The notes beneath the pieces are model-generated. The model was not told the origin of the DNA and ran no database searches. It saw only the letters and a list, made by a program, of their open reading frames with translations. Made by a program: the position numbers and the translations under genes. 64,000 bases of DNA, taken from NCBI GenBank assembly GCA_964016885.1, contig OZ024740.1, positions 41,478,001-41,542,000 of the forward strand. The letters are read 5' to 3'. Position 1 is the first letter of the stretch. Each line of letters begins with the position of its first letter. The DNA comes from Eledone cirrhosa (Eukaryota). Positions 12,458 to 14,123 of this stretch are shown here, piece by piece.

Positions 12458-12881
12458 TACCCATCTTCCGGCTTCTCTGGAGAATTGTAAAAGCACATAT
12501 CGTTATATGCTTTTTCTATGAAAATTAGTAGTGGGTAGACTAATTTGCATAGAACGTGAGTCATTGTACGCACCGGTTCAGCGGAAACGATAAAAACAAA
12601 TAACGAAACGAAATTAAATTTCGTTTCGCTTCTAACTCACTTTTGTATGACAGACGCTTAAACAATTAAGTTAAAGTGTACATCTACATATGTATACGGA
12701 AGTATTAGTATGCATATAAATACACACATGTATCCATATGTACATGTACTGAGTTTTTCACTAGACACTTTACAGTGAGTGTCAGCTAGTCTGTATGTAA
12801 CCACACAGACGGACCGGGTTTTAGAGTCATACGAGTTTTCAAGGAAACACATTTCCTCTATTCTTCAGAGGGCCAGGCAGG

Positions 12882-12919
12882 AATATTGGACTAGTTTCGA
12901 TGTTATTACATCTCATCAG
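12882..12919 (-). ncRNA. Hammerhead of unit 3, lacking the 5' strand of stem I
   Basis: The core is intact, but the array stops exactly at the C of CTGATGA (12919), where an inverted segment begins. Confidence 0.75.
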
Positions 12920-12959
12920 TGGTTACATACAGACTAGCTGACACTCACTGTAAAGTGTC

Positions 12960-14123
12960 AACCTAGTCATGGGATACCTGGAAATCACCCTCTACACTAA
13001 AGTACTAAACAAATTTGGAAACACTCTACACTTACACATAGAAAGGAACTGGAAGCGATATCTAGATGACTGCTTCATCCTTTGGCACGAAAACATCGAG
13101 AAACTTAAAGAATTTCACACACTTATAAATGGGCTCAACACGAATGTTAACTTTACGATGGAATACAGCCATCAACAACTCCCCTTCCTCGACATCCTCA
13201 TTAAGATTCATAACAAAAAAATAGAAACAGACATATAATACAAGCCCACAGACTCCAAGCAACATCTTCCTTTCAACTCTTGCCACCCTAGACACGTTAA
13301 AATTAATATTCCCTACAACTTAGCCAAGAGAATCTGTACTATAGTCTCCAATAAAAACACCTGTTACTTACGGCTACAAGAACTAAAGGACACACTCATA
13401 GGCAGGGACTACCCTGCATCACTAATTGACAATGGAATCCAACGTGCCCTAAAACTCAGTACCCAGGACCTTAGACACCCTAAAGTAAATCAACCGAAAC
13501 TAAAAGCTCTTCCATACATCTCCACACACAACCCCCTCAACAATGAGGCCTTTGACACCATCCTCCAGAACATCCATGTGTTAAAAAAGGACCATAGAAT
13601 GAACCAAATCCTACGAACACACGATATCATAAAGAACAAAAGACAATCTAAGTCAATGAAAAACATCCTAACACATGCCAAAGCACTGCCAACCACAACA
13701 ACGAAACCCACAGTAAAAAATATGCGATAGACCCAACTGTGGCATATGCATCAACCTAATAGAGTGTTCGGAATTCTATTTCAAAGAAGGACAGCGTTTT
13801 ATAGTAAAACACAATTTCACATGCGCATCAGAAAATCTAATATATGTATTAACTTGCTCAGGTTGTCGAGAACAATACATAGGCCAGACCAAGAAAACAG
13901 CCTCCGCCAACGCATGACTGTCCATAGATCCCAAATTAAAATACGGGAATACAGGAAAATACCACTGAGTGAACACATTGATACCTGTGCCGCCCAAAAT
14001 CATCCCAACTTCAGAATCTTTCCCCTCTACAAATTTAAAGACAATGCCACCCACACCCAGCGCATCAGCAAGGAATCTCACTTTATTAACAAATACGGAC
14101 CCCGTCTAAACACTTCTCCCTAA
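12960..14123 (+). pseudogene. PLE reverse transcriptase (C-terminal half) + GIY-YIG endonuclease, with stop and frameshifts
   Basis: NLVMGYLE...WKRYLDDCF...LPFLDI...YKPTDSKQHLPFNSCHP; linker RPNCGIC; NLIYVLTCSGCREQYIGQT; RQRMTVHRSQI...EHI...ESHFINKYGPRLNTSP*. Confidence 0.92.

Follow-up and report, generated by a model that had tools for sequence, protein, structure and literature searches.

Does the direct joining of a retrozyme to a Penelope-like element (PLE) record the transport of one element by the machinery of the other? The question is raised by a locus of the octopod Eledone cirrhosa, where, within a 64-kb window (the whole stretch of DNA analysed), a tandem array of a 469-bp unit, a 41-nt inverted stub and a 5'-truncated PLE lie side by side between (TA)n tracts (Table 1). 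Retrozymes have been proposed as non-autonomous partners of PLEs, which the same 2020 paper treats as a strong candidate for animal retrozyme mobility (Cervera & de la Pena 2020, PMC7229834), and a later preprint argues for the partnership because the two co-occur and because of the phylogeny of their pLTRs (Li, Clavereau & Pollet 2026, 10.64898/2026.07.22.740005). A preliminary description of the locus read it as a single integration in which the PLE reverse transcriptase (RT) switched templates, and hence as physical evidence for the partnership. We instead favour two successive insertions at a (TA)n hot spot, with a younger retrozyme beside an older one-armed PLE (probability about 0.62), and we consider that the marks at the insertion ends of the whole retrozyme family are likely better evidence of a partnership than this junction.

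Table 1. Features of the composite and its left-hand neighbourhood (window coordinates).
Feature	Position	Strand	Remarks
'leftrep' insertion	11418..11582		abundant TA-associated third repeat family; more copies at 9755-10175
3' end of another TA-inserting family	11599..11632	+	33-34 nt
Left (TA)n tract	11633..11653		putative target of retrozyme insertion
Retrozyme arm 1	11652..12919	-	head-to-tail 469-bp units 11652-12120, 12121-12589, 12590-12919
Type I hammerhead, copy 1	11929..11999	-	Rfam HH9, E 5e-5, below gathering score; short palindromic stem III
Type I hammerhead, copy 2	12398..12468	-	Rfam HH9, E 5e-5, below gathering score
Third hammerhead	12867..12919	-	5' stem I strand missing; cleavage predicted at 12889/12888
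Inverted stub	12919..12959	+	41 nt, unit positions 215 to 175; 1-nt overlap with arm 1
5'-truncated PLE ORF	12960..14123	+	RT end and thumb, C-x4-C-x2-C linker, GIY-YIG-type endonuclease
PLE 3' region and pLTR	14124..15389	+	ends at the family's short (untailed) terminus
Right (TA)n tract	15388..15417		seen in the sequence

The array (period 469, 2.7 copies, 99%) consists of units that differ from one another at 1-3 sites, and its outer end, the 'tailed' terminus of the family (unit position 1), sits on (TA)n, the RNA sense being minus. The hammerhead core is intact in units 1 and 2, giving two consecutive complete motifs, and in stem II the subfamilies differ by a compensatory exchange of A-U for U-A (104 vs 124 motifs). 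Hammerheads with a short palindromic stem III have been reported to require a tandem dimer for efficient cleavage (PMC4209133), and at least two full units were present at 41 of 90 retrozyme loci. The unit is non-coding (longest open frame 84 aa) and its RNA folds more stably than shuffled sequences (z = -10.3). Judged from these features, the 469-bp unit is a newly found non-LTR retrozyme, for which self-cleavage and circular RNA are predicted. Like animal non-LTR retrozymes, it is a strongly self-paired, non-coding tandem unit with one type I hammerhead each, present in many arrays alongside co-existing PLEs; its length lies above the 170-400 nt given in PMC7229834 and inside the 51-972 bp given in 10.64898/2026.07.22.740005, and, unlike the retrozymes of that preprint, it showed no related PLE pLTR when compared with the adjoining PLE. 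Rfam matches to mir-297, mir-1277 and DUF3800 were set aside as AT-rich hairpins far below gathering score.

At the junction itself, much of what the preliminary description had reported proved accurate. Bases 12920-12959 are indeed the reverse complement of 12764-12803; the match is exact, extends 1 nt left to 12919, and makes the stub an exact reverse complement of array sequence (blastn E 6.5e-16). The PLE opens at 12960 with NLVMGYLE, as described, and other copies run on upstream of that point, reading APTYA immediately before NLVMG; its 3' region (14124-15388) was likewise found to hold no copy of the unit, and (TA)n is present on either side of the composite. The array does end at 12919, at the CUGAUGA boundary of the hammerhead as claimed, but nothing singles that boundary out, since inner arm ends are scattered along the unit and 3 of 140 fell at positions 325-335 against 3.3 expected. 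We rejected the idea that ribozyme cleavage set the array end: the boundary lies 30 nt off the scissile bond and shows no preference for ends, and at the predicted cleavage site itself the enrichment of inner arm ends was not significant (6 vs 3.3 expected, P 0.11). Where the stub meets the PLE, it shares 1 nt of microhomology with the sequence that lies upstream in other PLE copies (TGTC vs TGCC, 3 of 4), and no TA is left between array and PLE. The outer ends of the composite are complementary, a tailed retrozyme end and a short PLE terminus, both on (TA)n. The 24-mer spanning the junction occurs once in the 3.0-Gb genome with 1 mismatch allowed, in a 443-Mb contig.

The PLE part is broken, with a stop at 13236-13238 and frame breaks near 13721 and 13892. 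Pfam gave no match on four fragments from the window, and a longer copy of the family (L173) matches RVT_1 (E 3.4e-7). With its RT, CX2-5CxxC linker and GIY-YIG domain, the element resembles the EN+ PLEs Neptune and Nematis (Craig et al. 2021, PMC8557442; Arkhipova et al. 2013, PMC3846280), with which it also shares a pLTR upstream of the ORF (seen in copies L172, L175 and L177-L179), an inverted 5'-truncated arm, a tail of ~35 nt at one end and (TA)n targeting. The linker marks the Neptune and Nematis clades and has been hypothesised to lie behind the microsatellite bias of Neptune (PMC8557442); we therefore call the adjoining element a Neptune-like EN+ PLE, the clade being read from the linker motif. 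Unlike EN+ PLEs of the Neptune/Nematis type, the family showed no canonical hammerhead in its pLTR in motif scans and Rfam searches, which a divergent motif could escape. The 'different decayed' hammerhead that had been reported in the PLE 3' region was not borne out, as Rfam finds none there or in a full-length copy; the only candidate motif, CTGATTGA..GAAA on the minus strand near 15049, is common to at least 9 of 30 copies and is therefore not decay of the window copy.

Across the genome, the 3' ends of this PLE family on (TA)n are of two kinds, short and bearing a tail of about 35 nt, in keeping with the standard PLE anatomy of inverted pLTRs with a one-sided tail (PMC3846280, PMC8557442). 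Exact short ends number 5,746, and two-armed PLEs pair one short with one tailed end (6/6 by eye; 9/9 resolved among 30 unselected short ends). One-armed PLEs whose truncated 5' end abuts TA account for about 6 of 30 unselected ends and for several of 29 ORF-bearing copies. Some copies form a young subfamily (over 70 nt, 12 of 30 ends show no difference), and thus the PLE and retrozyme families overlapped in time; the window copy lies outside it. A 73-nt pattern that we had taken to mark the young subfamily turned out to be specific to a five-copy lineage. Other PLE families, whose proteins are about 40-75% identical to that of the window copy, occur near retrozyme loci (L114, L146, L141, L074).

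We found 1,932 exact matches to (TA)n joined to unit position 1 of the retrozyme, and we examined the anatomy of the first 90 of these along one contig (C1), a set that contains the window and one duplicated pair. A script classed 55 of the 73 loci that end inside the examined stretch as head-to-head and two-armed, with the second arm ending at 70-76; 13 are one-armed and 5 have a second arm that ends elsewhere. The 17 further loci ran off the stretch, and 8 of them resolve to the same two-armed pattern, bringing the total to 63 of 81; no resolved locus has position 1 at both ends. In 23 of 50 cases the second arm exceeds the first in length, and arm offsets are spread over the unit, from which we infer that the two arms are separate reverse transcripts of a multimeric or circular RNA. 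The spread offsets ruled out classical twin priming on one RNA, and the cases with a longer arm 2 ruled out its origin as a general second-strand snap-back. The retrozyme tail (window 11652-11725, unit 1-75) holds a 13-bp hairpin of about 29 nt; speculatively, the tail minus this hairpin, about 40 nt, comes near the usual PLE tail length.

For the PLE PAc (Poseidon, green anole; Frangieh et al. 2024, PMC11167929), the tail has been shown in vitro to be the stretch between two RT start sites, and both target strands are cut and extended. The retrozyme ends resemble this system in their two fixed starts that would define a tail, their AT-rich target and their use of both strands; unlike PAc, the template here has no ORF, and the sites, as placed by genomic ends only, lie 70-75 nt apart (about 29 nt of it hairpin) vs 30-40 nt. 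The combination of fixed ends (1 and 70-76), head-to-head arms and TA targets thus matches the two-start-site 'tail' signature of PLEs and supports mobilisation of the PLE type; we infer that the retrozyme family is mobilised by a PLE protein, although the signature names no particular PLE family as partner. The adjoining PLE cannot be singled out for that role, because it shares no homology with the unit (best E 0.56, adjoining PLE only) and because the genome also contains at least one TA-inserting family with a hammerhead. The claim of a PLE-retrozyme partnership is in this sense backed by the insertion anatomy of the family and gains little from the junction that prompted it. Fixed two-site ends with head-to-head arms on (TA)n are not described in the main text of the preprint, where 'tail' and 'junction' are absent (10.64898/2026.07.22.740005), or in the available text of PMC7229834, and a literature search with most subscription journals outside its scope found no paper on retrozyme insertion ends. 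The family is also like MRC1 of Chlamys (PMC8557442) in being non-coding with multicopy head-to-tail insertions, the Chlamys elements being PLE derivatives with pLTRs; unlike the unit here, which bears a hammerhead and has no detected partner homology, they have a 3' end similar to that of the autonomous partner, and most of them carry no hammerhead.

A single event would leave both parts of the composite equally old, and their measured divergences are unequal. The window PLE carries 11 private substitutions in its 1,164-bp ORF, judged among 30 copies, and 7-8 in 976 bp of its 3' region (of the 8, one also occurs in other copies), about 18 in 2,140 bp (0.84-0.89%), vs 3 in 1,309 bp (0.23%) for array plus stub, the reference for the latter being the nearest unit (L003), to which array unit 2 is identical (one-sided binomial P 0.012-0.025). 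The caveat attached to the preliminary description, that the PLE looks more decayed than the array, can thus be put at roughly a fourfold greater divergence. For the array, the age estimate depends on 3 changes, each of which recurs at 1-2 other loci, and tandem units can homogenise. Among the best-scored candidates the nearest PLE copy is 2.15% from the window copy, and no near-identical source copy was found among the best 40 of 2,728 and best 40 of 1,398 candidates scored, though a decayed source copy might be missing from the assembly; most window-PLE variants are hardly ever seen in reads that come from other copies. The 11 ORF changes scored (10 private plus the stop, common to one other copy) comprise 4 synonymous and 7 non-synonymous ones, and there is also a private 2-nt insertion; such changes are consistent with decay after insertion.

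The site has received other elements as well. The left (TA)n tract was hit repeatedly, as two other insertions lie within 250 bp leftward. One of them is the 3' end of a family that is likely a second, hammerhead-bearing PLE family, albeit still a candidate: in a longer copy (L121, 3625-3762), a minimal-hammerhead motif in sense orientation lies about 110 nt before that 3' end. The other, 'leftrep', is possibly another non-autonomous PLE-type family; it lies within 300 nt of an end at 11 of 90 retrozyme loci, the window locus included, and a fourth family lies near 5 of 90. Copies of 'leftrep' often form inverted pairs and adjoin retrozyme ends, and the family has the highest summed read depth. 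The PLE family of the composite occurs within 300 nt at 2 of the 90 retrozyme loci, and in this small sample both are direct joins, with none separated by TA. Searches with either flank returned repeat relatives, with no paralogue or haplotig among the best 40 candidates scored per flank.

Direct joins of a retrozyme to non-TA DNA recur among the about 125 retrozyme loci sampled, from which all our chimera numbers come. At L103 (G000:C1:69440561-69446061) the retrozyme is joined to the same PLE family, both outer ends are tailed, and 10 nt of the PLE's inverted arm remain at the join, as in a two-armed PLE (L211); this PLE part is identical to young copies over 190 nt. At L162 (G000:C1:257658800-257663800) a 12-nt retrozyme stub leads into a different TA family, again with both ends tailed. 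Elsewhere a retrozyme is joined to a (GAT)n-tailed repeat (L182) or runs directly into a repeat at an AT site (L183). At L091 (862-970) and L153 (4177-4326) retrozyme ends are joined via 34-36-nt inverted copies of the flanking DNA, which suggests fold-back synthesis, either during insertion or during repair; in yeast, breaks have been documented to carry short fold-back inversions once repaired (PMC11724301). The stub at our locus can be explained without an RT template switch. The further TA-targeting family seen at L162 and L111 has short and about 58-nt tailed ends, and tail length varies by family (about 35, 58 and 70-75 nt).

How, then, did the composite arise? We reasoned that an older 5'-truncated Neptune-like PLE would already have stood on a (TA)n tract, and that the retrozyme would later have entered TA next to the PLE 5' end, probably by target-primed reverse transcription of the PLE type: a PLE RT-endonuclease would nick TA and prime on a retrozyme RNA, multimeric or circular, at its position-1 start, giving the 2.7 units; the 41-nt stub would be a fold-back copy from cDNA-end joining, or the remnant of a second arm after deletion; and the intervening TA, plus any PLE left arm, would have been lost. 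Two insertions are favoured because the L103 and L162 chimeras keep two tailed ends, because retrozymes are also joined directly to unrelated repeats (L182, L183), and because the PLE is older, one-armed PLEs commonly abut TA and the site is a multi-family hot spot. Against two steps, complementary outer ends would be expected in only about half of such cases, the join has kept no TA, and no PLE-only allele was seen in the flank searches (best 40 candidates per flank); the direct joins at both PLE-near loci also count against them and are what a one-event model predicts. An assembly error between repeat-rich reads is very improbable: no bridging of 12919-12960 was seen among the records listed, short records from four public runs, yet the join is base-precise and unique within its 443-Mb contig, and like joins recur at other loci.

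It has not escaped our attention that one PLE-catalysed integration, with retrozyme and PLE RNAs on the two strands of one (TA)n, could have produced the composite with or without a template jump, an origin that we consider unlikely while giving it real weight; were it true, the composite together with the family ends would be a direct physical record of PLE machinery moving animal retrozymes. Without a template switch, a PLE dimer would nick both TA strands, retrozyme RNA would be primed at the tailed start and a decayed PLE RNA at the short start, and the cDNAs would be joined head-to-head with a fold-back stub. The independent making of arms at ordinary loci (longer second arms, spread offsets), the complementary end status and the behaviour of PAc, a predicted dimer that cuts and extends both strands (PMC11167929), all suit this version, which is nevertheless improbable given the age gap, the direct joins at L103 and L162 with non-complementary ends, and a PLE template already broken, so that a third element must provide the RT. 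With a switch, as in the preliminary description, RT on PLE mRNA would jump at 12960 to position 175 of the retrozyme RNA, copy 41 nt and join the inverted arm. That the stub is in RNA sense and colinear with the PLE, the head-to-head layout, the microhomology and the complementary ends speak for it, and template jumps and in-trans capture have been proposed for PLEs (PMC3846280). It is disfavoured all the same, and we hold it for quite improbable: the PLE is some four times more diverged, three template engagements would be required, the site is a multi-family one, chimeras with two tailed ends exist, similar short stubs stand beside non-partner DNA (L162, L099) and flank-derived inverted copies at L091 and L153, the unit and the PLE lack homology, and none of 30 unselected PLE short-end loci has a retrozyme arm within 1.5 kb upstream.

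The preference for an insertion of the younger retrozyme beside an older PLE moves the interest of the locus from its junction to the family. A single junction adds little, and chimeras formed where microsatellites are hot spots can be mistaken for products of template switching; the more telling result is that a family of more than 1,900 TA-joined ends bears a mark tied biochemically to PLE reverse transcription. The partnership is now testable, as the target is known and the candidate RT starts can be placed at unit positions 1 and 70-76. Elsewhere, the window holds a 5-kb (GTG)n tract (31767-36835) and a 25-kb array of a 19-bp satellite in 1,335 copies (38583-64000), and just left of it (L185, 5950-9417) a 1,156-aa open frame resembles the ORF of an endonuclease-RT non-LTR retrotransposon.
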